DNA of 64,000 bases from a bacterium (GCA_965199855.1 OZ241326.1:2912001-2976000); one strand, 5' to 3'; counted from the stretch's first letter, positions 25,832-45,946 are shown. A program made the numbers and translations. Notes: generated from the letters alone by a model not told the origin.

Positions 25832-26287
25832 TCATCGCCACCACTTTCTTCCGTGCTTTTCAAACCACTCCTCGGCGCGGCGGGCGGCCTCCTCCCGCTG
25901 GGCGGGCGTCATCATTCCGCCGAGCGCGGGGACGGCTTTTCGCGCCAGCAGATTTCCGTTCTCGCCCGCGATCCTGAACCACTGGTGCGCCGCGACGTAG
26001 TCCCGAAGGACGCCCTCCCCCCTGTAATACATCGAGCCCAGCCTGTTCTGCGCGGCGTCGTGTCCCGCCTCCGCCGCCTGGCGGATCCACCGCAGCGCCT
26101 CCTTCTGGTCGCGCTGGACGCCGTATCCCACGGCGTGCATCTCGCCCAGGCGGAACTGCGCCCGCGCGCATCCGGCCTCCGCTCCCTTGAGATACCACCC
26201 CGCCGCCCGCTCGAAGTCCAGGGAGACGTAATCGCAGTAGCAACCGAGGACGAACCACAGCGTGGCCAGAAGACGATCCGCCGTCAC
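25832..26287 (-). CDS. Sel1-repeat protein (possibly N-terminally truncated)
   Basis: Three Sel1 units (AQFRLGEMH..G.GV.RD..EA..W; AQNRLGSMYYRGEGV.RD). Confidence 0.75.
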   Translation of the reverse strand: MTADRLLATLWFVLGCYCDYVSLDFERAAGWYLKGAEAGCARAQFRLGEMHAVGYGVQRDQKEALRWIRQAAEAGHDAAQNRLGSMYYRGEGVLRDYVAAHQWFRIAGENGNLLARKAVPALGGMMTPAQREEAARRAEEWFEKHGRKWWR

Positions 26288-26453
26288 TTCGCGCGCTCTC
26301 CGGTTCCGGGGCTGTTCCGCAGGGCTCCCGACGCGAAATCATACAGCGCGTCGCGCGATGAAGCCAGGGCGCGCGCCTCCCCGCGCGCTTGAAAAGGCGG
26401 CGCGGGTTCTGTATGTCACGAATGCGCCATTATCCATGGGGAGGAGAGAAGCG

Positions 26454-27068
26454 ATGCCGCAGACGACGATAGAATCGAAGGAGCAGCTCCGCGAGCGCTA
26501 CGGGCCGCCGAGCGAGCGGGGCGCCAAAAAGCAGATGTCGAAGCTGGACGAGCACGCGAAGAACTTCATCGCCCTCTCTCCGTTCCTGGTGATCGCCTCG
26601 GCCGCGGCGAGCGGGGCGGACGCCTCCCCCAAGGGAGACCCGCCCGGCTTCGTGAAGGTCATCGACGAGAACACCCTGCTCATCCCGGACAGGCCGGGCA
26701 ACAACCGCGTGGACACCATGGGCAACATCCTGGAGAACAGCCGCGTGGGCCTCCTCTTTCTCGTGCCCGGCATGTGCGAGACGCTGCGCGTGAACGGGCG
26801 GGCGCGCGTCACGACCGACCCCGCCCTCCTCGAGCCGCTCTCGGTGAAGGGCAGGACGCCCGTCTCGGGCGTGATCGTGGACGTGGACGAGGCGTATCTC
26901 CACTGCGGCAAGGCCGTCCTCCGCGCCAGCCTCTGGGATCCGGAGAAGCGCATCGACCGAAAGTCGTTTCCCTCGATGGGGCGGATGCTCGCCGATCAGA
27001 TCGGCGGCTACGACGCCGAGGAGCTCGACCGGGGGATTGAGGAGAGATACCGGACGGGCCTGTATTAG
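26454..27068 (+). CDS. Pyridoxamine 5'-phosphate oxidase-like FMN-binding protein
   Basis: DASPKGDPPGFV, PDRPGNNRVDT, ETLRVNG, YLHCGKA; strong SD GGAGGAG. Confidence 0.9.
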   Translation: MPQTTIESKEQLRERYGPPSERGAKKQMSKLDEHAKNFIALSPFLVIASAAASGADASPKGDPPGFVKVIDENTLLIPDRPGNNRVDTMGNILENSRVGLLFLVPGMCETLRVNGRARVTTDPALLEPLSVKGRTPVSGVIVDVDEAYLHCGKAVLRASLWDPEKRIDRKSFPSMGRMLADQIGGYDAEELDRGIEERYRTGLY

Positions 27069-27114
27069 CGCGCCGCGCCGGCGGGGAGCGGCCGATCAAG
27101 AGCCGCGCCGTTTC

Positions 27115-29295
27115 GTCTTCGCAGGGGCGGCGCCTCTCCGGGGTCGCCCCGCGAACCGCCCGTTTTCAGGAAGGGTTCGCATCGGAGGAGGCGGGGCGTT
27201 CCCGAACGCCCCCTGCGGGATGGCGGCGCGGAGCAAGTGCGGGCGGATGCGCGCAAACGCCGCGGCCTTGCGAAATACCCCCTCCCGGCGCCTCTTTGTT
27301 TCCATAACCATTTTATTTTCAATGACTTGATATTTTTTCCGCGCCCCGAAGGGTCTTGAATTTGTCGAAAAAAGCTGCGAATTTGCGGGATAAGGCCGTG
27401 AATTTGTCTTATTTTGTCGAAAACGGGATCGTTTTCATCATGGCGAGGACGACGCGCGCGCGGCGCGCCTGTGGAACCCGCAATCCGGGGGTTGCGGGAC
27501 GCGCCCCGACGCCGGACGACAACCCCCGGATTCCGCAATCCTCCCTCCGCACCGGAATTGACGACGCGGGAACGGCGCGGGACGAAAAACGCCCTGATCC
27601 ACGCCCACGCCTTCGTCATCATCCGCTTCCCGAAGTCCATGCGTTCGCCGCCTCCCTCTCGCGGCGGATTCTCGCGCGTTCAGGGGAAGGCCCGACAGGC
27701 GCAAATGCGGGCAAATGCGCAATCGATCCCGGCAAGGCGGAGGGATTGGCCCGGCGGGGGTGGTCATAAACCAAACCCCGGATTCCGGCCTTCGCCGGAA
27801 TGACGGCGGAATGAGGACGCGGTGTGGACAACCACAGGGGGTTGTCCCTACGGGATTGAATCGCCGCCGCGTGAATCGCGGCACCCCGCAACGGGGCGCA
27901 AGAATGCGCCCCCTACGGGCGGGTGTGACGGTTTCGTAGGGGCGGTTCGTGAACCGCCCGTTGCGATAATCGATCGCCGCGCGAATTCGTGTCCATTACG
28001 GGCGGCGGCGATTTTGATTTGCGTAGGGGACGCATTCATGCGTCCCGCCCGGCGTTTCGCGGGGATACGGGCTTTATGATTCCGCAGGGACGGCCCCTCC
28101 CCGGGGCCGCTCCACAATTCGCGGGCCGCCCGTTTTGAAGGGAAGACAATCAAAACCCTGGATTCCGGCCTTCGCCGGAATGACGGGATTCCGGGGCGGC
28201 GCGCGGCGGAGGGGAAATCCTCGCCGCCGTCTCGATGTCGTTCCCTGTCAGATCGAAGGGACGCCGGGGTTGGCCTTTCGCCGTCATTCCGAGGGACGCC
28301 GGGGTTGGTTTTTCGCCGTCATTCCGGCGAAGGCCGGAATCCAGAACCGGGGCGCGCGGCGGCGAACGGGCGTTCCCGGCCAATCCATGCGCGGGTTCAT
28401 GGTTTCGTGGGGATGCGGGTTTTATGATTTCGCAGGGGCGGCCCCCTGCGACCGCCCGTCGTCAATGGCGAGGATGGGGTGGGGATATTGTAGGGGCGGT
28501 TCGGGAGCCGCCCGTTTTTTTGACGGCATGGGCCGACAACCCGGCGATTGTCCGTTTGGTCGGCGCGGCGGGTCGTTCACGAACGACCCCTACGGGATGG
28601 TTGCGGATTGACGGGATGAAAATGCGCCGGAGGGGAAATCCTCGCCGTCGTCTCGATGTTGCTCCCTGTCAGATCGAAGGGACGCCGGGGTTGGCCTTTC
28701 GCCGTCATTCCGGCGAAGGCCGGAATCCAGAACCGGGGCGCGCGGCGGTCAACGGATGTTCCCCGCCAATCCATGCGCGGGTTCATGGTTTCGTAGGGGC
28801 GGTTCGCGAGCCGCCCGTTGCGATAATCGATCGTCGCGCGAATTCGTGTCCATTACGGGCGGCGGCGATTTTGATTTGCGTAGGGGACGCATATATGCGT
28901 CCCGCCCGGCGTTTCGCGGGGACGCGGGTTTTATGATTCCGCAGGGGCGGCGCCTCCCCGGGGCCGCCCCACGATTCGTGAACCGCCCGTTTTACAAGGA
29001 AGACAACCAAACCCTGGATTCCGGCCTTCGCCGGAATGACGGCGGAAGGACGCGGGGCGGACAACCACAGGGGTTGTCCCTGCGGCGGGGCGCAAGAATG
29101 CGCCCCCTACGGGCGGGTGTGACGGTTTCGTAGGGGCGGTTCGTGAACCGCCCGTTTTGACGGCATGGGCCGACAATCCGGCGATTGTCCGTTCGGTTGA
29201 CGGCGCGGGTCGTTCCCGAACGACCCCTACGGGATGGTTGCGGATTGACGGGGTGAAAATGCGGCGGAGGACAACCCCCTGTGGTCGTCCCTTGT
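27115..29295. repeat. Left REP mosaic array (GTAG- and CGTC-type palindromes with shuffled spacers)
   Basis: CGTC REP GGATTCCGGCCTTCGCCGGAATGACG at 27780, 28160, 29016 and inverted at 28317, 28703; GTAGGGGCGG-type hairpins at 27936, 28490, 28793, 29130; internal duplication 27936-28185 vs 28793-29041. Confidence 0.92.
27150..27805 (+). repeat. ~650-bp dispersed element, copy 1 (AT-rich core)
   Basis: Colinear, diverged direct repeat of ~34415-35073. Confidence 0.9.
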
Positions 29296-29409
29296 CAAAA
29301 CAGAAGCCCCGGGTTCCGCGATCCCTCCCCCCGCAAGCGAAACGGGCGCGGGGGGCGATCGTCCGGCCCCCGCGCCCGCGGTGGAGAATTCGTCCGTCCG
29401 GCCGGCCGT

Positions 29410-32400
29410 CTAGAAGCGCAGACCCGCGCTCAGGCGGCCGCCGTAGGTCTCATCGTCGGTGCCCGCGCCGGAGGCGAAAACCTCCCCGCCTAGCGTGAGG
29501 CGTCCCCTGCGCCATTTCGCGCCGAGGCCCATCAGCAGGCGGCTCTTCTCGGCTTCCGCGGCGAGCTTGTGGCCGGAGACCTCGACCTCGGTCTCCTCGC
29601 CGCTCAGAACGCTCCCGTAGTCCACCGAGTAGCGCAGGGAGAGCCCGTCCCCTCCCCCGGCGGGAAGCGTCCGCGTCTCCACGACCAGCCCTCCTCCCGC
29701 CGTCACGCGGGTTCCGTCCAGGAGGCGGAAGCTCGCGCCGACCGCGTCCGTGAAGGAGTCGATCGAGACCCCCGAGCGCGAGATCCAGGCCCTCGGCGCG
29801 AGAACGAGCCTTCGGCCAAGAATCGCCAGGCGCACGCCCGCCTCGGCGTCCAGGGTGAGGACGCTCGCGCTCGCCGCGCGCAGCTTGCCGCGCCTCTTCG
29901 AGGAGAGGTCGGCGTCGTATTCCATGAGGGAGAGGCCGCCGCTCACGTACCAGCCCTCTCCGATATTCCAGGAGAGGCCCGCGCCCAGCCCGACGCCCTC
30001 CAGCTCGATCTCCCCCTCGCCGGAGGGCATGGAGGTCTCGGCCGAGCCCTTCCGGTAGCGGACCGAGAGCGAACCGGCGAGGCCCTCCGCCCAGGGGAAG
30101 CGCGCGCGCAGCCCGGCCTCCGCCCCGTAGGCGGAGAAGTCGTAGTCCGCGCCGGCGGCGGACAGGTCCGTCCCGCGGGAGCCCTGCTCCGTCGAAACCC
30201 GCGCCCAGACGGGCGAGCCCGCCGCGGTCGCCTTGGGCTCCCCCCGCGCGCGGCCGCTCTCCATGCGGAGCAGAAGCCCCGGAAGCGACTCATAGACGCC
30301 CGCGCGGGCGCCCAGGGTCTCGATGGAATTCTCCGGGGAGAACGTCCCGTCCGACCCGGCGCGGAGGGTCAGATCCCACGCGCCGTTGACCAGCCGCATC
30401 CCGTCCGCCGCGCGCGCGCCGTTGACGACCATGATCGTCTCGCCGTCTCCGCCCACGATCCTGCCGCCGACGACGTCCCGCAGCCGGCGGCCGTTGAGCT
30501 CGAGGCTGACGCTGAGCGTCCCGTCGCCCCCGCGAATCGCCACGCCGTTCATCCCGCTGATGACGCCCTCGGCGCCGACCGTGACGGCTCCGCCCCCGTC
30601 AAGGCTCACGGCGCCTATCCGCCCGTCCACGCGCACCTGGCTGGCCGCCAGATGAACCTCGCCCGTCACGACTCCGCCCCGGCGGACGGAGACCCGGTGA
30701 TCGCCGCTTCCCGCGCCCACGATGCTCCCGTCCACCGTGCCGGACACCACGGCCGCGAGGTCGCCCAGCGCGCGAATGTCGCCTTCCACCGTCCCGGCTA
30801 TGGCGACGCTCAGGTCGCCGGCCCCGCTCCGGATCGCGTCCCCGTCTCCCTCCACGCCCGTGAGCCGGCCCGTCTTCGCGACCGTCACCGTCCCGCCGCT
30901 CCCCAGCAGGACGCGCCCGACGCGGCCGCGAATCGTCATCGGGGCGGTCGGGTCGTGGACGGTTCCGTTGATCGCGCCGCCCTCCGGAACCGACACGGTC
31001 AGGTCGCCCGCGCCCATCGTCCGGAGGTCGCCGTTCAGCGTTCCCGATACGAGCGCGCGCAGGTCGCCGTCGTCCAGCACGCGGATGTCGCCCGTCACCG
31101 TTCCGGCCACCAGCGCGACCAGGTCGCTCGCCTTCGGCTCGTAGTCATCGGGCGGCTCCGCGGGCGGGGCGGCGCCGCTCCGGATCGCCTCTCCCTCGAC
31201 GCCCGTGAGCCGGCCCGTTTTCGCGACCGTCACCGTCCCGCCGCTCCCCAGCAGGACGCGCCCGACGCGGCCGTGAACCGTCATCGGGGCGGTCGGGTCG
31301 TGGACGGTTCCGGAGATCGAGCCGCCCTCCGGCACCGTCACCGTCAGAGCGCCCCCGCCCGCCGCGCGAACGTCGCCCACGACCGATCCCGACACGTGCG
31401 CGATCAGGTCGCCTCCGCCCAGCGCCTGAAGGTCGCCCACGACCAATCCCGATACGACCGCGCGCAGGTCGCCCGCGCCCATCGTCTGAAGGTCGCCCGC
31501 GACCTCGCCCGATTCCGATATCACCGCGTCCAGGTCGCCGTCGTCCCGCACGCGGATGTCGCCCACGACCAATCCCGCCACTCCCACGGTCAGGCCGCCC
31601 GCGGCCGGCGCGTAGTCCTCGTCCGCATCCGCGGGCGTGGCGACGCCGCTCGCTATCGCGAGGCCCGAATCCGAGGTCACCCTGCCCGTCGCCCCGATCT
31701 CCACGTGGCCGATGACCCTTTGATCCAGGAAGATGGCGGCGTCCACGTCCTTCTGTCCGCCCTCCGTCTCCACCGTCCCGTGGACGATCACGCGGTCGAC
31801 CGAGTCATTCGAGACCTCGAACCCGGGGGTGCGCCTCATGTAGATGCCGACGATGATGGGATGCAGGGCGTCGTTGGAGCCGTCGTTGTTCGTGTCAATC
31901 GGCCGCCAACCGTAGACCCAGCTTGTCTGGATGTAGAAGTTTCCGAGCCCGAACCGCGCCCGGTATTCCGCGTCCGCCCCCGTGTCGATCTCCGCGCGGA
32001 CGGTCGCGCCCTCGCCCACCCGGACCACCCCGGCGGCGTTCGCGCCGCGCGTGTCGACGTGGATGGCGGTCCCCCCCCGGGTGAGGACCTTGCCGGCCGT
32101 CACGTCGACGAGGTTGCCCTCTATCTCCTCCGTATTCAGGTCGTCTCGCTGCGTGCTGGTCAGACCCCAGTGCGTGGGGTAGATGGCGTGGGCGTGCAGG
32201 GTTTCGACGGTGCCGGAAGACGTGATGCGGATGGCGCCCGCCCCGTCATTCAGGGCGCGGATGCCCACGCCCTGTCTCCCGTGAAGCCCCCGGTTCCTCA
32301 CGGCGGCCCTGATCGTTCCGGCCGCGTTGATCATGATGTCTCCGGTCTGGGGGATGAGGTCTCCGTTCCCTTCTGGTCGCGGGTCCCTGGCGTTGTTGGA

Positions 32401-33528
32401 AGAGGCGTTGACGAAGGCCACGACGGCGGGGGTGCCGCCCCCCTCGGTGATGTCGACCAGCGAGCCCTCGGCCAGATTGATCGTGACGCCGCCCTCATCG
32501 GAGCGGTTCACCCCGAAAACGCCGCCCATGCCCGCGCTCCCCGGGAGGTGGCGGACGACGCCCGTGGCGCCCAGCTCGAGGAGAATGTCGCCGCCGCGGC
32601 GGACGCCGCCGCGGCGGACGCCGTCGGCGCCGAGGACGCTGTCGTCGATCGTGTCCTGCACGATCGCCGTGATGGCGCCGGTGGTGTTGGACTGGTAGGC
32701 GGCGTAGCCGCCCACCACGCGATAGTTGACGTTCAGGACGCCGTCGTGCCGCACCGTGAGGTCGCTCCCCGGGCCCGCTTCCGATTCGACGTAGACGCCG
32801 GTGAGGAGGGTCAAAATGCTTTGAAAGCTTGGGTAAGTCCCGCCCCCCCCGGGCGTCCGCTGGAGGTTGATCACCGCGCCCTCCTCGATGTCCAGGGTCT
32901 TGCCGCCGCCCCGCCACAGGACGATGGCCCCGTCGGCCGGCAGTATGTTCATGTTCGCGCCGCCGGTGGCGGTGAACACGACGCCGCGCGGAATCGTGAG
33001 CCTGACGTTGTTGTCCGCGTTGTTGTTCTCCAGGGTCGTGGTCCTGTCCTCGGGGTTCGGGGTGCCGGTCGTGCCGGGCCCCTGGTTGTAGTGGAGGTGC
33101 CGGTAGTCGGCCGCTCCCTCGGCGGCGGCGGTGTCCGCGCAGGAGATCGTGGTGGTGTAGCGCCCGTTCGCGTCCGGCTCGCCGCTCACCGTCTGCGCGG
33201 GCGCGCAGATCGCCGGCGTCTGCGCCCGCGCCGCGCCCGTCAGGAGCGCGAGAAAGAACCCCAGGGCGAGCGCAGCCGCCCGCGCCCTCACGCCGCGCCC
33301 CCGGCGACGGTTACTTGTCGGTGAGTCGGTGAGTCGGTGAGTCGGTGAGTCGGTGAGTCGGTGAGTCGGTGAGTCGGTGAGTCGGTGAGTCGGTGAGTCG
33401 GTGAGTCGGTGAGTCGGTGAGTCGGTGAGTCGGTGAGTCGGTGAGTCGGTGAGTCGGTGAGTCGGTGAGGGCGCAGTATGCCCCGTCACCGACGGGCGGT
33501 CAAGCGTCACAGAGGCGGCCTCGTCCAT
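29410..33528 (-). CDS. Autotransporter (type Va) adhesin-like protein
   Basis: Signal peptide ...LALLTGAARA|Q; Gly/Val/Thr-rich beta-helix-like passenger; C-terminal barrel starting PVWARV and ending LSAGLRF; SD GAGGGAG ~7 nt before ATG 33528. Confidence 0.9.
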   Translation of the reverse strand: MDEAASVTLDRPSVTGHTAPSPTHRLTDSPTHRLTDSPTHRLTDSPTHRLTDSPTHRLTDSPTHRLTDSPTSNRRRGRGVRARAAALALGFFLALLTGAARAQTPAICAPAQTVSGEPDANGRYTTTISCADTAAAEGAADYRHLHYNQGPGTTGTPNPEDRTTTLENNNADNNVRLTIPRGVVFTATGGANMNILPADGAIVLWRGGGKTLDIEEGAVINLQRTPGGGGTYPSFQSILTLLTGVYVESEAGPGSDLTVRHDGVLNVNYRVVGGYAAYQSNTTGAITAIVQDTIDDSVLGADGVRRGGVRRGGDILLELGATGVVRHLPGSAGMGGVFGVNRSDEGGVTINLAEGSLVDITEGGGTPAVVAFVNASSNNARDPRPEGNGDLIPQTGDIMINAAGTIRAAVRNRGLHGRQGVGIRALNDGAGAIRITSSGTVETLHAHAIYPTHWGLTSTQRDDLNTEEIEGNLVDVTAGKVLTRGGTAIHVDTRGANAAGVVRVGEGATVRAEIDTGADAEYRARFGLGNFYIQTSWVYGWRPIDTNNDGSNDALHPIIVGIYMRRTPGFEVSNDSVDRVIVHGTVETEGGQKDVDAAIFLDQRVIGHVEIGATGRVTSDSGLAIASGVATPADADEDYAPAAGGLTVGVAGLVVGDIRVRDDGDLDAVISESGEVAGDLQTMGAGDLRAVVSGLVVGDLQALGGGDLIAHVSGSVVGDVRAAGGGALTVTVPEGGSISGTVHDPTAPMTVHGRVGRVLLGSGGTVTVAKTGRLTGVEGEAIRSGAAPPAEPPDDYEPKASDLVALVAGTVTGDIRVLDDGDLRALVSGTLNGDLRTMGAGDLTVSVPEGGAINGTVHDPTAPMTIRGRVGRVLLGSGGTVTVAKTGRLTGVEGDGDAIRSGAGDLSVAIAGTVEGDIRALGDLAAVVSGTVDGSIVGAGSGDHRVSVRRGGVVTGEVHLAASQVRVDGRIGAVSLDGGGAVTVGAEGVISGMNGVAIRGGDGTLSVSLELNGRRLRDVVGGRIVGGDGETIMVVNGARAADGMRLVNGAWDLTLRAGSDGTFSPENSIETLGARAGVYESLPGLLLRMESGRARGEPKATAAGSPVWARVSTEQGSRGTDLSAAGADYDFSAYGAEAGLRARFPWAEGLAGSLSVRYRKGSAETSMPSGEGEIELEGVGLGAGLSWNIGEGWYVSGGLSLMEYDADLSSKRRGKLRAASASVLTLDAEAGVRLAILGRRLVLAPRAWISRSGVSIDSFTDAVGASFRLLDGTRVTAGGGLVVETRTLPAGGGDGLSLRYSVDYGSVLSGEETEVEVSGHKLAAEAEKSRLLMGLGAKWRRGRLTLGGEVFASGAGTDDETYGGRLSAGLRF
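33317..33468. repeat. Perfect simple sequence repeat (GTCGGTGA)19 inside the 5' coding region of the autotransporter
   Basis: 152 nt = 19 exact 8-mers; encodes (SPTHRLTD)6-SP. Confidence 0.98.
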
Positions 33529-33602
33529 TTCCATTCTCCCTCGCATTCTTCCGCGTCCTCCCGGATTCCTTATCGACAAAACCCGCTATAAATCACCGAT
33601 GA

Positions 33603-33630
33603 ATTATACGTAAGAGCCGTCGGGACGCAA
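33603..33630 (-). promoter_or_regulatory. sigma70-type promoter of the autotransporter
   Basis: Minus strand TTGCGT-16 nt-TATAAT, ~75 nt upstream of ATG 33528. Confidence 0.6.
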
Positions 33631-33694
33631 GAGGAAAACGGAAGACGGCGTGGATGGCGGTTTTCATCCACGGGCGGGGACGCGGGAGTTGCGC

Positions 33695-35935
33695 CTTCGT
33701 AGGGGCGGTTCGTGAACCGCCCGTCGGATGATCGACCGCCGATCGGGTTCCGCCATGAATCAAAACCCCGGATTCCGCAATCCCTCCGCCTTGTCGGAAT
33801 TGACGCCGCGAATGACGGCCGGGAACGCGGGGGCGTGATTTCGTAGGGGCGCGCCCTCCCCGGGGCCGCCCCACGATTCGGGAACCGCCCGTTGGGGGAT
33901 GGTTGCCTATGGATGATGGGCCGTAGGGGCGGCCCCCGCGGCCGCCCGTTGCGAGGAACAACCGCCGCGCGGGTTCCGCCATGATGAATCAAAACCCTGG
34001 ATTCCGGCCTTCGCCGGAATGACGGCGAAAGGCCAACCCCGGCGTCCCTTCGATCCGACAGGGAACAACATCGAGACGGCGGCGAGGATTTCCCCTCCGC
34101 CGCGCGCCGCCCCGGAATCCCGTCATTCCGGCGAAGGCCGGAATCCAGAACCGGGGCGCGCGGCGGCGAACGGGCGTTCCCGGTCAATCCACGCGCGGGT
34201 TCATGGTTTCGTAGGGACAACCCCTCCCCGGCGCCGCCCCGCGATTCGCGAACCGCCCGTTTTCAGGAAGGGTTCGCGCCACAGGCGGCGGGGCGTTCAC
34301 GAACGCCCCCTGCGGGCGAAATGCGCGAGGGACAACCACAGGGGGTTGTCCCTGCGATTCGCGCCGCGTTCGTGGAGGGCGGACGCGATTCGCCTTCGTA
34401 GGGGCGGCTCGCGAGCCGCCCGTTTTGGGGAAGGATTCGCGCCACAGGCGGCGGGGCGTTCACGAACGCCCCCTGCGGGATGGCGGCGCGGAGCGGGGGA
34501 GCAAATGCGGGCGGATGCGCGCAAACGCCGCGGCCTTGCGAAATACCCCCTCCCGGCGCGTCTTTTTCACACAATCCGTTTATTTTCAATGGGTTGATGT
34601 TTTTTTCGCGCTCCGAAGGGTCTTGAATTTGTCGAAAAAAGGCTGTGAATTTGCGGGATAAAGGCGTGAATTTGTCGGATTTTGTCGAAAACGGGATTGT
34701 TTTCATCATGGCGATGGAGGAGCGCGCGCGGCGCGCCTGCGGAAGCCGCAATCCGGGGGTTGTGGGGCGCGCCTTGACGCCGGCGGGAAAATGACGGATT
34801 CCGCAAACCCTCCTCCGCACCGGAATTGACGACGCGGGAACGGCGCGGAGCGAAAAACGCCCTGACGCGCGCCCTCGCCTTCGTCCTCATCCGCTTCCCG
34901 AAGCCCATGCGTTCGCCTCCTCCCTCTCGCGGCGGATTCTCGCGCATTCTCGGGAAAGCCCCATAACCGCAAATGCGGGCAAATGCGCGATCGATTCCGA
35001 CGGGGCGGAGGAATCGTCCCGACGGGGGCGGTCACAAACCAAACCCTGGATTCCGGCCTTCGCCGGAATGACGGGATTCCGGGGCGGCGCGCGGCGGAGG
35101 GGAAATCCTCGTTGCCGTCTCGATGTCGTTCCCTGTCAGATCGAAGGGACGCCGGGGTTGGCCTTTCGCCGTCATTCCGAGGGACGCCGGGGTTGGTTTT
35201 TCGCCGTCATTCCGGCGAAGGCCGGAATCCAGAACCGGGGCGCGCGGCGGCGAACGGGCGTTCCCGGTCAATCCATGCGCGGGTTCCACCCCCGACGCGC
35301 AGGGACAGGTCGCGACCTGTCCCTACGGGATTTTCGCGCGGCGGAGGCGTCCCGGCGAAGGACAACCACAGGGGGTTGTCCCTACGATTGCCGCAATCGC
35401 CGCGCGCGGCGTCGTCGCCCAATCCCGCGGAACGGGGCGCAAGAATGCGCCCCCTACGGGCGGGGGCGGCAACGGTTCCGTAGGGGCGGCGCCTCCCCGG
35501 GGCCGCCCCACAATTCGTGAATCGCCGTTTTGAAGGAAGACGATCAAAACCCCGGATTCCGGCCTTCGCCGGAATGACGGCCGGGGATACCCCCTCCGCG
35601 CGGGTGGTGATTTTTCCTTTGTAGGGGACGCATATATGCGTCCCGCCCGACGTTTCGCGGGGATGCGGGCTTTGTGGTTTCGTAGGGGCGGCGCCTCCCC
35701 GGGGCCGCCCCACAATTCGTGAACCGCCCGTTTTGGAGGAAGACGATCAAAACCCCGGATTCCGGTCTTCGCCGGAATGACGGCCGGGGATTCCCCCTGC
35801 GGCGGGCGATGCGGGTTTCATGGTTTCGCAGGGGCGGCTCGCGAGCCGCCCGCTTTGGCGGCGTGGGCCGACAACCCGGCGATTGTCCGTTCGGTTGGCG
35901 GGGGCGGGTCGTTCACGAACGACCCCTGCGGGATG
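33695..35935. repeat. Right REP mosaic array
   Basis: CGTC REPs at 33999, 35048, 35554, 35757 and inverted at 34121, 35205; GTAG hairpins at 33699, 33843, 34398, 35480, 35621, 35682; 35041-35286 nearly identical to 28153-28398. Confidence 0.92.
34415..35073 (+). repeat. ~650-bp dispersed element, copy 2
   Basis: Colinear with 27150-27805, same orientation. Confidence 0.9.
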
Positions 35936-36048
35936 GGCGTCCGCCGGCGAGCGGATTGCCAAACCGCCCCTCCCTTCTATATCTTGGCGAGAGGGAGCAG
36001 CCTTTCGACGCCGAGCCATTCAAAGCCCGTCGGGGCCCGGGAAGCGGA

Positions 36049-36786
36049 ATGCCCAGCGAAACGGCCTCGACGGCCGCCAGAAGACGAAAAGTCCTGAGGC
36101 TCGCGGACAGGCTGTCCGCCCGCTTCGGGAAGCCCGGGCGCGCCGGGCGCGGCGACCTCCTGGACGCCCTGGTCGAAACCCTCCTCTCGCAAAGCACGAC
36201 CGACCACAACCGGGACATCGCGTTTCGCTCCCTGAAAAAGACCTTCGCCGACTGGGAGGAGGTCGCCGACGCGCCCCAAGGGGAGATCGCCCGGGCGATC
36301 CGCTCCGCCGGGCTGGGGAACCAGAAGGCCGGACGCATCCGGGACTTCCTCAGACGGCTCCGGGAGGACCGGGAGCGGCTCTCCCTGGAATTCCTGCACC
36401 GCGAGCCGGACGACTTCGCCGTGCGGTATCTCACCCGGCACAAGGGCGTCGGCGTCAAAACCGCCTACGTCGCCCTGATGCTGGCCTCGAACCGGGACCT
36501 GTTCGCCATCGACGTCCACATCCACCGAATCATGATCCGGCTGGGCGTCATCGGCGAGAAGACCACCCCCGAGAAATCCCACGCGGAACTGGCGCCTCTC
36601 GTCCCGAAGGGACGCGCCCGCGAACTGCACGTGAACATGCTGCGCTTCGGCCGAACCATCTGCGCCGCCCGAAGCCCCAAATGCGGCGAATGCGACCTGC
36701 GGCGCATGTGCCGCTACTACCGGGAGACGCGCCCGGGGAGGCGCGCGGCCGGAGAGGCGCCCGCTTCCCGAAAGCCCGCCGAATGA
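36049..36786 (+). CDS. nth: Endonuclease III / HhH-GPD DNA glycosylase
   Basis: LLSQSTTD, GVGVKTA HhH, IDVHIHR, C-x6-C-x2-C-x5-C FeS motif. Confidence 0.85.
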   Translation: MPSETASTAARRRKVLRLADRLSARFGKPGRAGRGDLLDALVETLLSQSTTDHNRDIAFRSLKKTFADWEEVADAPQGEIARAIRSAGLGNQKAGRIRDFLRRLREDRERLSLEFLHREPDDFAVRYLTRHKGVGVKTAYVALMLASNRDLFAIDVHIHRIMIRLGVIGEKTTPEKSHAELAPLVPKGRARELHVNMLRFGRTICAARSPKCGECDLRRMCRYYRETRPGRRAAGEAPASRKPAE

Positions 36787-37682
36787 TGAAGTGGGTTCAG
36801 CTGATCGGCCCCGGAGAGACGCTGGCGATCGCCTCCTCCATCACGTTCTCCGTGGCGCAGACCCTTCTCCGGCAAGGGATGCGAAGCGTGTCCCCGCTGG
36901 CAACCGCCCTGATCATCAACGGCGTCGTCAGCCTGGGCGGATTCGCCATATCCCTCGGCAAAGGCACGCTCCTCGCCTCGAAGCCCGAAGCCCTCTTCTG
37001 GTACGCCGCCGTGGGCGTCACCGGCCCGACCATCGGGAGATACTGCTATCTGACGGGCGTCGCCCGCATGGGGCTGAGCCGGACCGTGCCCATATCCTCC
37101 GCGGCGCCCATCTGGGGCACCTTCCTCGCGGTGGCGTTCCTGGGCGAGGCGCCGACGGCGATGGTCGCGCTCGGCACCCTCGGCATCGTCATCGGCGTAT
37201 CCATGCTGGGCGTCCAGGAGGACAAGTCCGAATCCTTCAGGAGCTGGTTCCAGGGGGCGCTGGTGTTCCCGCTCGCCGCCTCGCTCGCCTACGCGGCGGC
37301 GCCCATCTTCGCCAAGCTCGCCTACGCGCATCAGACGACGCCCGGCGTCGGCATGGCGGTATCCTTCGCCACGGCGAACGTCCTCCTTCTCCTCGCCAGG
37401 CCGATCCTGCCCGGCCAGCGGGACATTCGCGGAGACCGAAAAGGCCTCCTGTGGGTGGGAGGCGCGGGCCTCATCGGCGTCTGCAGCTCCTACATGCTCT
37501 GGACGGCCTTCACCATGGCGAGCGTGTCCACCGCCCTGCCCCTGAGCCGAATCGCGCCGATCTGGGTGCTGATTCTGAGCTACTTCTTCCTGGGCAAGCT
37601 CGAAACGATCAACCGCAGGACCGTCATGGCCACGATTTGCGTGGTCGCGGGCGGCGTTCTCATCACGGCCTTCAGGGGCTGA
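36783..37682 (+). CDS. DMT/EamA family transporter
   Basis: ~10 TM helices, two EamA repeats (FLGE/FLGK). Confidence 0.85.
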   Translation: MMKWVQLIGPGETLAIASSITFSVAQTLLRQGMRSVSPLATALIINGVVSLGGFAISLGKGTLLASKPEALFWYAAVGVTGPTIGRYCYLTGVARMGLSRTVPISSAAPIWGTFLAVAFLGEAPTAMVALGTLGIVIGVSMLGVQEDKSESFRSWFQGALVFPLAASLAYAAAPIFAKLAYAHQTTPGVGMAVSFATANVLLLLARPILPGQRDIRGDRKGLLWVGGAGLIGVCSSYMLWTAFTMASVSTALPLSRIAPIWVLILSYFFLGKLETINRRTVMATICVVAGGVLITAFRG

Positions 37683-37713
37683 CCCCACGGCGCCGGGACG
37701 CGCGGCGAACCTC

Positions 37714-38970
37714 CTACCTGCCCGCCGCGGCCTCGGCCACGCGGGGCGAATAGGCGAGATCGTCCACCTGCGGCGGCTCCTCGAGGAAGCCCGCCGCCTT
37801 GAGCGAGAGCACGTCGTTCGTGCCGTCCGAGTGGAGGAAGCTCAGGGCGTCGCGCATGAGCTTCTCCACGGGGTTCTTCCGCATGTATCCCGCCGCCCCC
37901 CAAAGCTCCATCGCCGCCTGGCACACCTGCACGGCGGACTCGGAGGCGAACACCTTGCTCAGCATCGCGTTTTTCCTGTCCATTTCGTCCAGCTGGGTGG
38001 ACCACGCCGCGCGCCACAAATAGGAGCGGGAAGCCTCTATCTTCATCGCCATGCGCGCGAGCCGCGCCTGCTGAATCTGGTGCCCGAACAGGGGCGCGCT
38101 CCCCTGAACCCTGGCGTGCGCGTACTGGAGCGAGAGGTCATACGCCCGCTGCGCGACGCCCAGGACGGTGGCGCCCGCCTGAATGTTGCTGCCGTGCCTG
38201 ATCAGCAGATTCGCGAGCGCGGGCATGGCCTGGCCCTCTTCCCCGATTTGATCCTCCTCGGGAATCTCCACGTCGTGAAACTCCAGCGTGCCGTTCTGAA
38301 CGCAGCGCTGGCCGAGCTTGTCCCACACCTCCGTGACCTCGAACCCCCTGGCGTCCGAGGGCATCAAAAAGGCCGTGAGGCTGTTCGCCAGGGGATTCTT
38401 TCTGTCCGTGCGGGCGACGACCTGATAGATTCTGGCGAGGCCGCCGTTCGAGATGTAGCGCTTGGCGCCGTTCAGCACCCAGCGATCCCCCTTCTTCTCG
38501 GCGTAGGTCTGCATTCCGGCGCCGGGATCCGGATTCGGCAGCACGTTGTCGCTGCCCGCCGTCGGCTCCGTCCAGGCGGTCGCCAGAAGGCATTCCTCAT
38601 CATCCATCAGCTTCGGAAGCCAGCGCTTCCGCTGCTCGTCGTTCGCCATGTTGACGATCGACGTCATGATCTTCCACGTCTGATCGTAGGCCACGGCGAG
38701 CCCCAGGTCCCCATACGCCAGCGCCTCGCCCACGACGGCGCAGGAAAGCACGTCGGCGCCCTCGCCCCCGAACTCCTTCGGGACGGTAAGCGTTCTGAGA
38801 CCCCGCTTCGAGCCCTCCCGGATGACCTCCCAGTTAAAGGATTTCCCGGGATCCTGGATGCGGTCCGCGACCTCGGCGGCGGGTATCATCACCTCGGTGG
38901 CGTATCTTCTCGCAGTCTCCCTGAGCTCCGTCTGCCGCTGCGTGAGCTGGAAATCGACCATCGGTTTCAT
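37714..38970 (-). CDS. Acyl-CoA dehydrogenase family protein
   Basis: TEPTAGSD, LNGAKRYISNG, KLGQR, WGAAGYM...EKLMRDA. Confidence 0.95.
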   Translation of the reverse strand: MKPMVDFQLTQRQTELRETARRYATEVMIPAAEVADRIQDPGKSFNWEVIREGSKRGLRTLTVPKEFGGEGADVLSCAVVGEALAYGDLGLAVAYDQTWKIMTSIVNMANDEQRKRWLPKLMDDEECLLATAWTEPTAGSDNVLPNPDPGAGMQTYAEKKGDRWVLNGAKRYISNGGLARIYQVVARTDRKNPLANSLTAFLMPSDARGFEVTEVWDKLGQRCVQNGTLEFHDVEIPEEDQIGEEGQAMPALANLLIRHGSNIQAGATVLGVAQRAYDLSLQYAHARVQGSAPLFGHQIQQARLARMAMKIEASRSYLWRAAWSTQLDEMDRKNAMLSKVFASESAVQVCQAAMELWGAAGYMRKNPVEKLMRDALSFLHSDGTNDVLSLKAAGFLEEPPQVDDLAYSPRVAEAAAGR

Positions 38971-39051
38971 CCTCCCAAAGAAGGCGCGTCACGCGCCGGG
39001 GAAAAGCCTCGCCCGCGCCCGCTTTTCCCCATGCGCCGAAAGCGGGACGCC

Positions 39052-39450
39052 CTACGAAGCCGGGGGATTCTCGCACAACTCGATGCGGATGTTCCCCGGC
39101 CCCCTGACGTAGGCGATCATCCGCCCGCCGACGCCGAGGCGCGCGGGCTCCATCATGATCTCCGCCCCCCTGCCTCTCAGCCGCTCGACCGCCGCCTCCA
39201 CGTCCGCGACGCCGAACCCGAAATGATCCAGCCCCTGAACCAGCTCCGGCCCCACCGAATCCGGCGTCTCCCCCGGCCTGACGCCGCGCGCGAATATCAT
39301 CAGCCCGCCGATTCGAATCGCCGCGTTGGGCGAGCCCTTGAAGTCCTCGTCATAGCGGACGAGTTCGGCGTCGAACACGTCCTGAAAATACGCGGCGAAC
39401 GACTTCGCGTCCGCGCAGACGTAGTGAACGTGATCAAGGCCGAATTCCAT
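39052..39450 (-). CDS. VOC/glyoxalase family protein
   Basis: LDHVH, LDHFGFGV, GPGNIRIEL. Confidence 0.9.
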   Translation of the reverse strand: MEFGLDHVHYVCADAKSFAAYFQDVFDAELVRYDEDFKGSPNAAIRIGGLMIFARGVRPGETPDSVGPELVQGLDHFGFGVADVEAAVERLRGRGAEIMMEPARLGVGGRMIAYVRGPGNIRIELCENPPAS

Positions 39451-39470
39451 CGCGTCCTCCGGGCGCGGCG

Positions 39471-41177
39471 CTACGGCGCGATGATGACCGGGGAGTCCTC
39501 CGCGTCCGCGCTCTCCGAAGCGCCGCCCCCGGCTTCCTCCTCCGGCGCCTCCCCTTCCTCTCCACGGGACTCCCGGGCCTGGCGAATGATTCGCTCGAGC
39601 ATCAGGTTGATGGAATGCTGAACCATCTCGACGAACAGCGCCGGGGGCTCATCCGCGTCCTTCAGCACCTCATCGGCCAGCGTCAGGCACTCCCGGGCCA
39701 TCGCCTCATCGCCCGCCTGGTGGAAAATATACCCGTTGTCCTCCAGCTGGCCCGAGATGCGCTCCCGCAACGCCCCGTCCTGAAAAATCTCTTTCGCGCC
39801 GTTTTCCACGATTTGCCGCAGCCGCTCCCGCCTTTGCCTCTCGTCCATCGCCACCCGGCTTTCCATCGCCTGCAGGAACTCCTGGAAATGCGGCGCCGCA
39901 CGCTCCTCATCCATCGCCCATCCCCAAAAGGGGCGATGGGCGAACACGGCGCGCGTCTCCATCCTCTCCCCGCCTTCTTCGAGGGCGCGCACCGCCCGGC
40001 GCACCGGGTGCGGCCCCTCCGGGGGAAACGCATCGGGCTCCGCCAGGGGATCGAGCATGAGCTTCGCGCGCGTGAAGCCGTGGGGCAGCGGCGTCTCTCC
40101 CGCTTCGTTCTCGCGCCGGGCGCGCTCAAGAAGCCAAACGGCGTACCCGGCGGGCACCTCGCGCGTCGCCAGGGCGGGGATTTCCGAAACCCGGCGGAAA
40201 ACGCCGCGCAACTCCCTGGCGCTCATCTCCGCATCGGTGAACTCGACGATTCCCCGCCCCCGGCGCAGGCGCGCCTGCGCGAGATACCTGCCGCGAGGAA
40301 CCCTGGAGCGCGCGAGCCACAAAAGCATCTGTCCGCGCCCATCCACCGCGCTCGCCGCCGCGTGAGCGTAATCGGGCCGGCCGGCTCGGTGGGCGCCGCG
40401 CGCGTCCGCGTCGGGCGGCTTTTCAATTTCCACCCCCCCGCTTTTCAGGCGAAACGCCGCCTTGCGGATGAGGGACAGCGCGTCCTTGTCCCCGACCAGC
40501 TTCGAGAGCTTCCGGAGCGCGAGGGCGGCGTCCCGCGTCCCCAGGCGCGCCAGAATCCGAATGAAGTGGGCGGGCGGCGAGACGCCCTCGCCGGACATCG
40601 CTTCCGCCAGCGCAAGCGCGCGCTTCTCCGGAACGCCGTCCGCCCCCTCCAGGCCGTCCCGCAGAGCGGCTTCCGCCAGAAAGGGAGGCAGGCTTTTCAG
40701 CGAAGACGCGAGGGGCTTCGCGGAATCGACGGAGAGGGGGGCGTCCTTCTTCAGTCGGGCGGCGACTTCGCGGGCGACGCCCAGATTCTCCGCGTCCAGG
40801 CCGGCCGGCAGTTTCGCCTCCGGGTCCAGCGCGCGAATGGTCTCCCCCAGCGCGGCGAGGCCCGGAAGCGACCAGCGCATCGTCCGGATCAGGGAAACGA
40901 GCTTCCGCACGACGGACGGATCGCCCAGCTCCCGCAGGGCGAGAAGGGTGGGGACGCGCCCCTCCGGCGCGGTGGAAGACAAGTGGCCCAGGACGCCGGC
41001 GACGCCCGCCGCGCCCATTTCCCGGATTTCATCCAGCAGGGGCGCGGGCGCCATGGCGCCCGGCGGAGCGGGCGAAGTGAAGGACGCCTCCAGGCCGGCC
41101 GCCACGCCCGCCGCGCGGAGCAGGACTTCCTTCGGAAAAGCCTTCTTCGAGGATTTCCGCCTCGGCTTCTTCGCCAA
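39471..41177 (-). CDS. Conserved hypothetical protein (helical, HEAT-like N-terminal half)
   Basis: 568-aa ORF with protein-like composition; TTG start with GGGAGAAGGG upstream; SAVDGRG motif. Confidence 0.65.
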   Translation of the reverse strand: MAKKPRRKSSKKAFPKEVLLRAAGVAAGLEASFTSPAPPGAMAPAPLLDEIREMGAAGVAGVLGHLSSTAPEGRVPTLLALRELGDPSVVRKLVSLIRTMRWSLPGLAALGETIRALDPEAKLPAGLDAENLGVAREVAARLKKDAPLSVDSAKPLASSLKSLPPFLAEAALRDGLEGADGVPEKRALALAEAMSGEGVSPPAHFIRILARLGTRDAALALRKLSKLVGDKDALSLIRKAAFRLKSGGVEIEKPPDADARGAHRAGRPDYAHAAASAVDGRGQMLLWLARSRVPRGRYLAQARLRRGRGIVEFTDAEMSARELRGVFRRVSEIPALATREVPAGYAVWLLERARRENEAGETPLPHGFTRAKLMLDPLAEPDAFPPEGPHPVRRAVRALEEGGERMETRAVFAHRPFWGWAMDEERAAPHFQEFLQAMESRVAMDERQRRERLRQIVENGAKEIFQDGALRERISGQLEDNGYIFHQAGDEAMARECLTLADEVLKDADEPPALFVEMVQHSINLMLERIIRQARESRGEEGEAPEEEAGGGASESADAEDSPVIIAP

Positions 41178-41336
41178 AACCCTTCTCCCGCGAGATGCGC
41201 CCCGGAGCCCGCATCATCAGAGGGCGCGGCGCGTTCTGTCAACACGGCGCGGAAGGCCGCTTCTCCCCCCTTCCGCCTTTGCCAACGCCTGCGGGCGCAT
41301 GACACAATCGCCGACACACGGGTCTTGGGAGAATAC

Positions 41337-42326
41337 GTGAATCTTCGCTTCGTCCACTGCGGCGATTTTCACCTCGGCTGCGATTTCGACTACCTCCCGC
41401 CCTCGAAGGCGGCGGCGCGGCGGGCCGACCTCCGCATGGCGTTTTTTCGCTCCGTTCGAGAAGCGCTCGCGTGGGGGGCGCAGGCGTTCCTCATATCGGG
41501 CGACCTGTTCGACTCGCCCCACCCCGGGGAGCGCGACATCGAGATCGTGGCGAAGAACCTCGCGTGCCTCTCGAAGAGCGGGACGCGCTGCTTCGCCATT
41601 CCGGGCAACCACGACCCGGTGCGCCCGCAGTCCGTTTGGAGCCGGCCCGAAATCGCGGACAACCTCCATCTGCTTCACGCCGATCCCGCCGCCGAATTGG
41701 GCCAGGCGGACATCGCCGAGCTCAATCTCACCGTCGCCGGCATCCCCTGGAGCGAGGCGGACGCCCGCAAGCCGCCCCTGCGGGAAATTCTCACGCGAAA
41801 ACTTCGCCTGAACGACAGGGCCATCCTGCTCCTGCACGGCTCGGAGGCCGCGCTCGCCTCGGAGCATCCCGCGTTCGAGGAGCATCCGTTCCGGGCCGAC
41901 GACCTCGAGCGCCTGCCCTTCGGCTACGCGGCGATAGGCCACTACCACAAGCCTCTGGACGTCGCCCGGTGGAGCGGCGGCGGCGCGTGCTACAGCGGCT
42001 CCCCCGAAGGGTTGCGCTTCAGCGATCACAATCTCGGCGAGCGCTCCATCGTCCTGGGGGAAATCGACGAGAAGGGCGCGCTCATCCGGCTGAAGCGAAA
42101 AGCCGTCAACGCGCGCACCATGAAGGCGCTCTCCTGGTCGGCGGGCGACGGGAGCGCGGCGGACGACTGGTTTCGCGCCATCGACGACATGAAAGGCCCG
42201 GATATTCTCCTGAGAGCGCGCGTGCCGAAGCGGGAGGGCGCGCGGCAAAGGCGGGCGGAAGTTCTCCTCTCCGCCCTGCGCCATGAGTTTTTCCACCTGG
42301 ACGTCGTATGGGAATCGTCTCCGTGA
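41337..42326 (+). CDS. Mre11/SbcD-like metallophosphoesterase nuclease
   Basis: GDFHLG, GDLFD, PGNHD, LLHG, IGHYH, YSGSPEG; GTG start with GGGAG. Confidence 0.88.
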   Translation: MNLRFVHCGDFHLGCDFDYLPPSKAAARRADLRMAFFRSVREALAWGAQAFLISGDLFDSPHPGERDIEIVAKNLACLSKSGTRCFAIPGNHDPVRPQSVWSRPEIADNLHLLHADPAAELGQADIAELNLTVAGIPWSEADARKPPLREILTRKLRLNDRAILLLHGSEAALASEHPAFEEHPFRADDLERLPFGYAAIGHYHKPLDVARWSGGGACYSGSPEGLRFSDHNLGERSIVLGEIDEKGALIRLKRKAVNARTMKALSWSAGDGSAADDWFRAIDDMKGPDILLRARVPKREGARQRRAEVLLSALRHEFFHLDVVWESSP

Positions 42327-43111
42327 GCAGGCCCGTCCGGTGCGACGTGGCTTTCGCCCATCCGGAAATCCCCGCGCGGATCGGGGACGCGCGCCGGGCG
42401 CGCCGGCAAGGGGCGGAGAGCATCGTATGCGTCGTGATGGACGTCCTGAGAGCCACCACGAACATCGCCGTCATCCTGGAGAACGGAGGCTCCGCCGTCC
42501 ATCCATGCGCGTCCGTCGAGGCGGCGCTTGATCTCGCCCGAAAGCTGCGTCTTGAGCGCGGGCCGGAAAACATACTCCTGGGCGGCGAGCGGGACGGCAG
42601 ACCCGTCCCGGGATTCGACGGAGGGAATTCCCCGCTGGAATACGCGAGCCCGAGAATCCGGGGAAAAACGCTCGTGTTCTCCACGAGCAACGGAACCAGG
42701 GCGCTCTTCGCCGCGAAGGACTGCGGAGAGGTATTCACCGCCGCGTTCGTGAACGTCACCGCGGTCGCCGAGCGGGCGGCGTCCGTCCTGCGCCAGGATC
42801 CGGGCCGATCCCTCCTGATCGCCTGCTCGGGCCGGGAAGGCGCCTACTGCGAAGAAGACGCCGTGGGAGCGGGCGTCCTGCTGGGCATTCTGTCCGAGAG
42901 TCTGGAGAACCCGGAGCTTTCCGACGCCGCGCGCGCGGCGCTTCACCTCGCCGGACGCGCCGGGCGGAGCCTGGAGAAAATGCTCTTTCGGAGCTGCTGG
43001 GGAAAGCGCCTGGCCGCCCTGGGCTTCGGAGACGACGTCTCCTTCTGCGCGCAACGGGACATTACGAGCGTCGTTCCGAAACTCGAAGACGGGGCGATAC
43101 GGAGCGCCTAA
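42308..43111 (+). CDS. comB: 2-phosphosulfolactate phosphatase (ComB family)
   Basis: DVLRATT, GGERDG, GNSP, STSNGT, EEDAVGAG; start may be GTG 42323. Confidence 0.88.
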   Translation: MGIVSVSRPVRCDVAFAHPEIPARIGDARRARRQGAESIVCVVMDVLRATTNIAVILENGGSAVHPCASVEAALDLARKLRLERGPENILLGGERDGRPVPGFDGGNSPLEYASPRIRGKTLVFSTSNGTRALFAAKDCGEVFTAAFVNVTAVAERAASVLRQDPGRSLLIACSGREGAYCEEDAVGAGVLLGILSESLENPELSDAARAALHLAGRAGRSLEKMLFRSCWGKRLAALGFGDDVSFCAQRDITSVVPKLEDGAIRSA

Positions 43112-45832: not shown

Positions 45833-45946
45833 GCCGTCTCTCGCCAGGGAGGAACATGACGAAGCCCCTTTCGCCGCAGGACGAGGGCGTCCTCGATTCT
45901 CGGGCTCCGGCCTCCCGCGAAGCCTGACGCGAATTGTAACAAACCC

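Follow-up and report, generated by a model that had tools for sequence, protein, structure and literature searches.

Organization of the locus

The locus described here lies in a 64-kb stretch of DNA (the window, G000:C1:2912001-2976000) of the genome studied, G000, which is a single contig of 3,043,534 bp with a G+C content of about 64-76%. It comprises one autotransporter (AT) gene, AT17, and two long non-coding arrays of repetitive extragenic palindromic (REP) hairpins and spacer modules that enclose it, between a gene for a PPOX-type FMN flavoprotein and a gene for an nth-like DNA glycosylase (Table 1). A first-pass annotation of the window had proposed a candidate surface-variation site resembling the Neisseria intergenic mosaic elements (NIMEs). 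The anatomy of the arrays, their distribution in G000, and the comparison with the closest congener, G001, point to a zone of NIME-like plasticity, in which AT-bearing segments probably recombine through the arrays and single AT genes are probably switched by short repeat tracts. The locus is not unique, as it is one of 17 similar paralogous AT loci of G000.

Table 1. Features of the AT17 locus and linked repeat tracts; positions count from the first letter of the window unless G000 is named
Feature	Position	Strand	Remarks
PPOX-type FMN flavoprotein gene, left flank	26262..27068	+	TIGR04025 E 3.6e-77, PF01243; closes the hemY-hemE-PPOX block
Left mosaic array, non-coding	27069..29409	.	2.34 kb; 17 REP/hairpin units, classes R1-R8, both orientations
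M_A, left copy	27223..27765	+	Dispersed ~540-bp non-coding element; A+T-rich core with iterated ~22-bp motifs
187-bp unit	28158..28344	.	Two inverted R3 hairpins at its ends, 29-nt arms 100% complementary, 129 nt apart; inside the 253-bp module common to both arrays
AT17 autotransporter gene	29410..33579	-	1389 aa counted from the most upstream start; PF03797, TIGR01414
Octanucleotide tract	33317..33469	-	Unit GTCGGTGA on the + strand, 19.1 copies; between an upstream Shine-Dalgarno-ATG and the signal-peptide-like segment
Right mosaic array, non-coding	33580..35936	.	~2.36 kb; 18 REP/hairpin units; modules of the left array in changed order
R3-bounded unit	33997..34148	.	Inverted copy of 28158-28302 (145 nt, 96%), longest exact inverted match 81 bp; the pair brackets the AT gene
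M_A, right copy with bounding hairpins	34415..35073	+	Direct repeat of 27150-27805, 87% (over 676 bp), 7.27 kb apart
253-bp module, right copy	35034..35286	+	Direct copy of 28146-28398, 98%, longest exact match 154 bp
HhH-GPD DNA glycosylase gene (nth-like), right flank	36100..36786 (about)	+	PF00730; NF053634 and TIGR01083 below cut-off
R3 sites of the locus	27780, 28160, 28316, 28702, 29016, 33999, 34120, 35048, 35204, 35554, 35757		At most 3 mismatches
Other AT-linked repeat tracts	G000 310217, 1067132, 1185893, 1186579, 1782368, 1986533, 2141818, 2194250, 2441703, 2475376, 2697195, 2882654		From the tract census

Modules and hairpins of the arrays

The left array is the fifth-largest and the right array the third-largest repeat array of G000. 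None of their ten open reading frames (ORFs) of 137-233 aa matches Pfam (E<=0.01), and an Rfam search of 26500-36500 at E<=1 gives no match, so both arrays look non-coding. They hold 46 of the 49 REP-motif matches of the window, in line with the initial remark that such repeats are sparse elsewhere in it.

The arrays are built from three components, namely REP hairpins with a GTAG or GCAG head, a 28-nt hairpin termed R3 that resembles the neisserial NTS, and spacer modules. The GTAG/GCAG-headed hairpins are sorted into the classes R1, R2, and R4-R8, with 46-131 copies each in G000. A generic count of hairpins with such a head gives 429 in G000, of which 4 lie inside AT ORFs. They are short, imperfect, extragenic, multicopy palindromes with a GTAG-type head, as is usual for REPs. 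R3 (CGTCATTCCGGCGAAGGCCGGAATCCAG) is the CGTC palindrome that had first been counted in 11 copies. The same number of sites is found between 27000 and 36100 at up to 3 mismatches, with a single further site in the window at 15849 and 106 copies in the whole of G000. In both arrays, plus and minus units are interleaved with recurring linkers, which is the clustering of bacterial interspersed mosaic elements (BIMEs). The set of units is common to the two arrays; their order and orientation differ.

Alignment bears out the view that the arrays contain the same modules in shuffled order. The segments 28153-28398 and 35041-35286 are identical at 243 of 246 positions (98.8%), 27150-27805 and 34415-35073 at 87.1%, and 28023-28185 and 35621-35782 at 88.3%. 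The segment 28490-28600 is 87.4% identical to both 29130-29235 and 35828-35935, and the latter two are 87.0% identical to each other. The six pairs therefore range from 87.0 to 98.8%, against a mean of 57.9% and a maximum of 64.4% in 200 random pairs of 160-bp segments of the window.

The left and right copies of the 253-bp module are far more alike (98%) than any other copy of the module in G000, which reach at most about 93%. This indicates a recent duplication or conversion within the locus. AT17 lies between exact repeats of both kinds: direct ones of 154 and 71 bp, and inverted ones of 81 and 59 bp.

The spacer element M_A occurs in 18 copies in G000 with 77-91% identity. Its A+T-rich core (27300-27445 and 34590-34700) contains three GAATTTG-containing motifs ~22 bp apart that resemble iterons, and TRF reports a period of 22 at 34624-34680 in the right copy. 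The core columns are 90-100% conserved across the 18 copies, and the core looks like a protein-binding or promoter region. A Shine-Dalgarno-ATG followed by an open frame (MDFGKR...) recurs in 14 of the 18 copies, across in-frame indels. A gene at this place was considered and rejected: all three codon positions are substituted about equally often, the C-terminus changes with the frame, and Pfam gives no match. As the substitutions are without codon periodicity, M_A is treated as non-coding.

The autotransporter and its repeat tract

The enclosed ORF was correctly recognized as an autotransporter. PF03797 (E 5.1e-16) and TIGR01414 (E 7.2e-12) match its last 306 aa, which form the C-terminal beta-barrel of a type Va autotransporter, encoded at 29410-30330. 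The full-length protein has no Pfam match at E<=0.001, and the C-terminal part scores only when it is searched alone. No Pfam family was found in the passenger. An Atlas search with the passenger gives BigA- and pertactin-like proteins as best neighbours with scores of at most 0.85, which are leads only.

The signal-peptide-like segment RARAAALALGFFLALLTGAARA stands after the octanucleotide tract. The location of the tract between an upstream Shine-Dalgarno-ATG and this segment makes it a candidate phase-variation switch. As the tract precedes the putative signal peptide, the predicted switching may be translational or transcriptional, or may act on the leader.

A census of tandem tracts in G000 (unit of 4-9 nt, at least 5 copies) places 13 of the 14 tracts at the 5' ends of AT genes. 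Eleven of these are octanucleotide tracts with 12-36 copies, and two are heptanucleotide tracts of CGCAGAC with 34 copies upstream of AT10 and 58 upstream of AT6. The unit CCGACTCA builds nine of the AT-linked tracts. Altogether, 12 of the 17 ATs have a 7- or 8-nt tract, and a unit in the 5' region whose length is not a multiple of three is characteristic of contingency loci. The copy number (12-36) differs among paralogous ATs, which is not variation at one locus.

Association of the arrays with autotransporter genes

A PF03797 search gives 17 AT genes in G000, which have an N-terminal leader and the C-terminal third in common. Repeat-dense arrays occur within 3 kb of all 17. When repeat bases are defined as bases in 16-mers with at least 5 copies in the genome, the 3-kb flanks of the ATs comprise 3.1% of G000, yet contain 26,789 of its 89,693 repeat bases, with a density of 0.281 versus 0.0195 in the remaining genome. 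The k-mer arrays include a probable clustered regularly interspaced short palindromic repeat (CRISPR) array and probable insertion sequences, and motif-based counts are the cleaner measure. By motif, 215 of the 429 generic GTAG-head hairpins are in the AT 3-kb flanks, as are 48-67% of the copies of each class (52/106 for R3 and 66/131 for R1). The probable CRISPR array is at G000 979772-981500, where a k-mer array that is probably not of REP type stands next to a Cas1 gene (PF01867).

Intergenic gaps give the same picture. Their counts are approximate, being derived from a crude gene caller with a GC3 filter: at least one REP is present in 30 of 33 AT-adjacent gaps (247 units, 6.41/kb) and in 71 of the 1,480 other gaps (231 units, 0.28/kb), a 23-fold higher density beside ATs. 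The enrichment of the modules beside surface genes that the first-pass annotation had envisaged is therefore present genome-wide. Among the largest arrays, 8 of the 10 of at least 2 kb and 27 of the 44 of at least 1 kb adjoin an AT gene.

Comparison with related genomes

The loci used for comparison come from metagenome-assembled genomes, some of which are labelled Nitrospinota or Nitrospinaceae, and sequencing runs labelled as sponge metagenome contain DNA of the locus. Of 31 related loci, 21 retain the hemY-hemE-PPOX block. Downstream of PPOX, none of the 31 has a homologue of an AT, of nth, or of EamA, though some of the loci end soon after PPOX. The four relatives among them that were examined in detail all have PPOX followed by an orthologue of G000 752431-754542.

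On the other side, 35719-46879 of the window is collinear with G001 403002-413827, and nth is the first gene of this block. Orthologues of G000 961430 and then 836120 precede nth, with no AT between them, in four of five further congeners (G002, G010, G012, and G004); this gene order was not detected in the fifth, G007. G001 has an AT between the same two orthologues. It is a different paralogue, 44-52% identical to AT17, and has the opposite orientation relative to nth. Because the relatives have other genes beside PPOX and nth, both junctions of the locus, PPOX/array and array/nth, are derived in the G000 lineage and specific to it. The PPOX-nth interval, which had been put forward as the place to look for variation among relatives, is present in none of those examined.

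The comparison of G001 with G000 extends this to the other AT loci. A synteny break was scored where the nearest flanking orthologues, with at least 60% identity, are more than 15 kb farther apart in G000 than in G001, and 20 regions of 18 kb chosen away from ATs served as controls. Breaks are spanned by 14 of the 17 G001 ATs and by none of the 20 controls. A conservative count is ~12/16, as two of the 14 are in one interval and one rests on ORF mapping into an array. The break endpoints lie beside a G000 AT or an array of at least 600 bp in 12 of 14 cases on the left and 10 of 14 on the right, and include 'empty' arrays without an AT at G000 265359, 749425, 836915, and 2737828. The flanks neighbouring ATs contain six further breaks, each of which adjoins a G000 AT or array on at least one side. 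Three G001 ATs separate genes that are neighbours in G000, where two of the three corresponding gaps (~2126590-2126897 and 1497459-1497757) still have REP-like hairpins. The AT/array loci are thus sites of rearrangement between species on an evolutionary timescale, and coincide with synteny breakpoints between the two closest genomes.

In G001, 313 kb of AT loci contain 173 GTAG-head hairpins and 360 kb of controls contain 4; the hairpins belong to other REP classes than those of G000. R3 and M_A were not found in the G001 AT loci, and the whole of G001 has 5 copies of R3. A search with the G000 query found no ssnA homologue in G001.

The AT repertoire itself has diverged strongly. When each of the 17 G001 ATs is paired with its best match among all G000 proteins, the identities range from 40 to 80% with a median of 47.8%, compared with 87.1% for 117 flanking ORFs. 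G001 has 17 ATs like G000, while eleven other congeners have 0-8. The genomes of G000, G001, and G008 are ~3.0-3.1 Mb in size versus 3.7-4.6 Mb in ten other congeners; G008 is without ATs, and 17 ATs occur only in G000 and G001.

AT genes of G000 are also mosaic. AT7 (G000 1784494-1786707) and AT14 (2476114-2478327) have 2,214 bp in common at 99.95%, which covers the 3' part of the gene and ~350 bp of flank, and probably represents a recent duplication or gene conversion. The AT14 protein has only 866 aa. AT9 and AT15 have 3,165 bp in common at 92%, and AT8 and AT12 have 704 bp at 96.6%.

Logan contigs from four runs of four studies stop at 27136-27179 and resume at 29247-29363. PPOX and the AT gene are represented in X6 and X10 by contigs with differences of a few per cent.

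Candidate genes for hairpin enzymes

One ORF of G000 resembles a REP-associated tyrosine transposase (RAYT). It is at 2896300-2896848 (L044 1165-1713), ~15 kb before the window. Its 182-aa product has an HLH motif and, towards the C-terminus, a tyrosine region. It matches PF01797 with 34.6 bits, above the cut-off, and NF047646 with E 5.2e-20. R1 REPs are located ~180 bp upstream and ~95 bp downstream of it.

G000 also has one small single-domain GIY-YIG gene at 2869304-2869588 (L101 1441-1728), ~43 kb before the window. It encodes 95 aa and matches PF01541 with 70.8 bits. One R3 hairpin precedes its start by ~45 bp and another follows its stop by 5 bp, so that it has both the size, below 150 aa, and the two-sided motif of an ssnA gene. 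The best match of this SsnA-like protein in a sequence search of the PDB is a weak one, to a UPF0213 GIY-YIG protein (E 3.6e-4). Homologues of the gene occur in 5 of 12 congeners, all five with at least 99 copies of R3, and the 7 congeners without a match have 0-103 copies. ComEC and DprA are present in G000; they are too widespread to indicate competence.

Comparison with known systems

NIMEs: According to PMC1797815, NIMEs consist of dRS3 inverted repeats around families of RS spacers, and their arrays vary between genomes and are proposed to be substrates of recombination. The G000 arrays are similar in being long intergenic hairpin arrays with spacer families of ~50-250 bp, which cluster at surface-protein genes and flank genes that are unusually divergent. 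Arrays beside cell-surface genes, with flanked genes that diverge faster, are also what is found in G000. In contrast, the 20-bp dRS3 (ATTCCCNNNNNNNNGGGAAT) is replaced here by a core of ATTCCG-N8-CGGAAT, with one change per arm. The arrays of G000 are also bounded by unrelated GTAG REPs and mixed with a 540-bp element, and they occur in a different phylum, as relatives of the host are labelled Nitrospinota. The genes that they flank are one paralogous AT family with octanucleotide tracts, and chromosome-scale synteny breaks map to the arrays, which goes beyond allele divergence. Judged by its sequences, the system appears to work like a NIME but is not a member of that group.

NTS and SsnA: The NTS (PMC11893778; Chenal et al., Nat Commun 2025) is given as CGTCATTCCCGCGMAVGCGGGAATCYRG, an extension of dRS3 (ATTCCC-N8-GGGAAT). 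The same paper describes SsnA as a 94-aa GIY-YIG nuclease that cleaves NTS as single-stranded DNA, and the Neisseria Ssn system as one that restricts transforming single-stranded DNA with NTS. R3 agrees with the consensus reported there at 26 of 28 positions, and the two mismatches constitute one compensatory change of a C-G to a G-C stem pair. It is thus NTS-like and not NTS, and the initial comparison with dRS3 proves apt. R3 also fits the degenerate SRM pattern of PMC11893778, with 129 matches in G000 versus 18 in a reversed-genome control. The 95-aa single-domain gene flanked by hairpins has the NTS-ssnA-NTS layout published there, and in both cases hairpins surround particular genes. In sequence and gene context, the R3 component therefore corresponds to the published SRM/Ssn pairs, and nuclease activity is predicted. 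The system differs in that G001, the closest relative, keeps the AT-REP pattern almost without R3.

REP/BIME and RAYT: The G000 hairpins are similar to REPs and BIMEs in being GTAG-headed imperfect palindromes, which are extragenic, alternate in orientation, number in the hundreds, and occur with a single REP-flanked RAYT-like gene. They differ in their extreme concentration, with about half of the copies packed into 3% of G000 next to a single gene family. In addition, at least seven stem classes occur with one RAYT-like gene, which has a REP inside its ORF.

Contingency loci: Simple-sequence contingency loci are known from phase-variable autotransporters and adhesins of Neisseria and Haemophilus, with usual units of 1-5 nt. 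The AT tracts of G000 resemble them in being long, in having units not divisible by three, and in standing at the 5' end of genes for surface proteins. In contrast, the units here have 7-8 nt in 12-58 copies, and the AT17 tract is upstream of the putative signal peptide.

To our knowledge, NIMEs have been a peculiarity of Neisseria for 25 years, and their role in surface variation is still argued from genome comparisons. A full-text literature search, judged by title and abstract, gave no description of such an autotransporter system in Nitrospin*, and a full-text search likewise gave no work connecting REPs and autotransporters with rearrangement in organisms other than known pathogens. G000 presents a NIME architecture in an unrelated, uncultured lineage, including a hairpin that is one base pair off the Neisseria NTS and an SsnA-type gene. 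Its arrays are tied to a single large AT family and coincide with nearly all of the sampled rearrangements between two closed genomes. The lineage thus offers an independent natural replicate for the questions of whether hairpin arrays promote recombination at surface-protein genes, and whether such arrays are shaped by RAYT and Ssn enzymes. It also suggests that adhesin-like proteins varying in phase and repertoire are a feature of a sponge symbiosis.

Interpretation and alternative explanations

The reading that we consider likely is a NIME-like plasticity zone, in which homology between arrays recombines AT-bearing segments and repeat tracts switch the genes. The arrays supply dispersed direct and inverted homology, because copies of their modules are found at many loci and to either side of each AT. 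Homologous recombination between arrays would invert, translocate, delete, or convert segments that carry ATs, and the 7-8-nt tracts at the AT 5' ends probably turn single genes on and off. Such recombination would run through the arrays, by RecA or by hairpin enzymes, and presumably continues within populations, where it may excise, invert, or amplify ATs and may be useful for surface variation.

Several observations weigh against this reading. The breakpoints are mapped at gene resolution and could fall in AT genes rather than in arrays, and the gap counts behind the association are approximate. Other large arrays adjoin ordinary genes (Lhr helicase, Mrp antiporter, DctM, TruD, and others). 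The arrays are therefore not specific to surface genes, and their association with ATs is strong and not exclusive. This, together with the presence of 16 further loci of the same kind, also limits the first-pass annotation: the NIME-like zone stands, while its distinctness does not, as the locus is not special and similar arrays occur beside housekeeping genes. AT17 has no segment of at least 400 bp at 85% identity or more in common with another AT. No recombination junction within a population was seen in the four runs, in which contigs break at the arrays and the joints have 21-34 letters on the shorter side, within repeats. As G001 shows its AT-REP pattern nearly without R3 and without M_A, neither R3/Ssn nor M_A is needed for it. 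The RAYT-like ORF reaches 71.8 bits with NF047646, below the NCBIfam cut-off of 80, and contains an R1 REP (GTAGGGGCGGTTCGGGAACCGCCCG), which is translated in frame as ...VRRGGSGTAR... and separates the HLH motif from the tyrosine region. This internal REP may explain the low score, or may be an inactivating insertion.

R3/Ssn was considered as a necessary cause of the AT association and rejected, as the same pattern exists in G001 with 5 R3 copies and no ssnA match to the G000 query. The AT-REP link is therefore older than the R3/Ssn component and independent of it.

A more far-reaching form of the plasticity reading is tentative. Here, a RAYT and an SsnA-like nuclease would seed and maintain the mixed arrays around 17 tract-gated ATs, and the arrays would drive inversion, exchange, and loss of cassettes. 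This would be a surface system that arose outside Neisseria, in a sponge-associated symbiont of the Nitrospinota lineage. The GTAG/GCAG REPs of at least seven classes are of the kind that a RAYT would handle, and G000 has one RAYT-like gene. R3, as a near-NTS hairpin, is the probable target type of SsnA single-strand nucleases, and G000 has one R3-flanked GIY-YIG gene. If this is true, the symbiont meets an invertebrate host without adaptive immunity with both on/off switching and a reshuffled surface repertoire.

Neutral accumulation is unlikely. REPs would pile up in AT regions that are recently duplicated, monocistronic, and weakly constrained, and beside REPs that already exist; the arrays would have no role, and the rearrangements would merely coincide with them. 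The occurrence of REPs in 71 other gaps, beside housekeeping genes, would suit this, as would the fast turnover of REP classes between G000 and G001. The R3 counts of the congeners (0-269) likewise do not track AT number, since G010 has 269 R3 copies and 4 ATs. Yet passive accumulation would not readily give a REP density per kb of gap that is 23-fold higher beside ATs, nor the recent local exchange suggested by the 253-bp pair (98% versus about 93% at most elsewhere). Breakpoints also occur at the AT-less arrays at G000 265359, 836915, 749425, and 2737828, which implicates the arrays rather than the ATs.

Improbable, too, is a mobile cassette, in which an AT and its arrays move as a unit and re-insert elsewhere, either as a circle formed through the direct M_A or 253-bp repeats, or by the action of RAYT or Ssn on the hairpins. 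The three G001 ATs between genes that are adjacent in G000 fit such movement, and AT17 is bracketed by direct repeats (M_A, 87% over 676 bp; exact, 154 bp). The NTS-ssnA-NTS arrangement is likened to an insertion sequence in PMC11893778. However, neither defined ends nor target duplications were seen, the array content is different at every locus, and G001 is without M_A. The REP remnants at the 'empty' G000 sites fit deletion as well as insertion.

A mainly regulatory role is very improbable. The hairpin arrays would terminate transcription, insulate, or stabilise mRNA, and would keep phase-variable ATs apart from their neighbours. REP/BIME elements of enterobacteria do affect mRNA stability and termination, and nearly all AT genes have arrays on both sides. 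Arrays that span 2-3 kb and contain 17-28 hairpins nevertheless go far beyond the needs of termination, and this role leaves the synteny breaks unexplained. An assembly artefact, in which mis-joins in a repeat-rich metagenome assembly made the duplicated modules and the odd neighbourhood, can practically be dismissed: no contig of the four runs bridges the arrays, but G000 and G001 are each one contig with 99-100% completeness, the same pattern occurs at 17 loci in each of these two independently assembled genomes, and array k-mers reach ~15-100x the flank depth in all four runs, as expected of real multicopy repeats.

Flanking genes

The left flank contains a 151-aa ORF at 25832-26287 on the minus strand, between hemE and PPOX. 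In the related locus L015, the same position has ~10 tandem paralogous matches to this ORF with 35-51% identity (L015 5664-9693).

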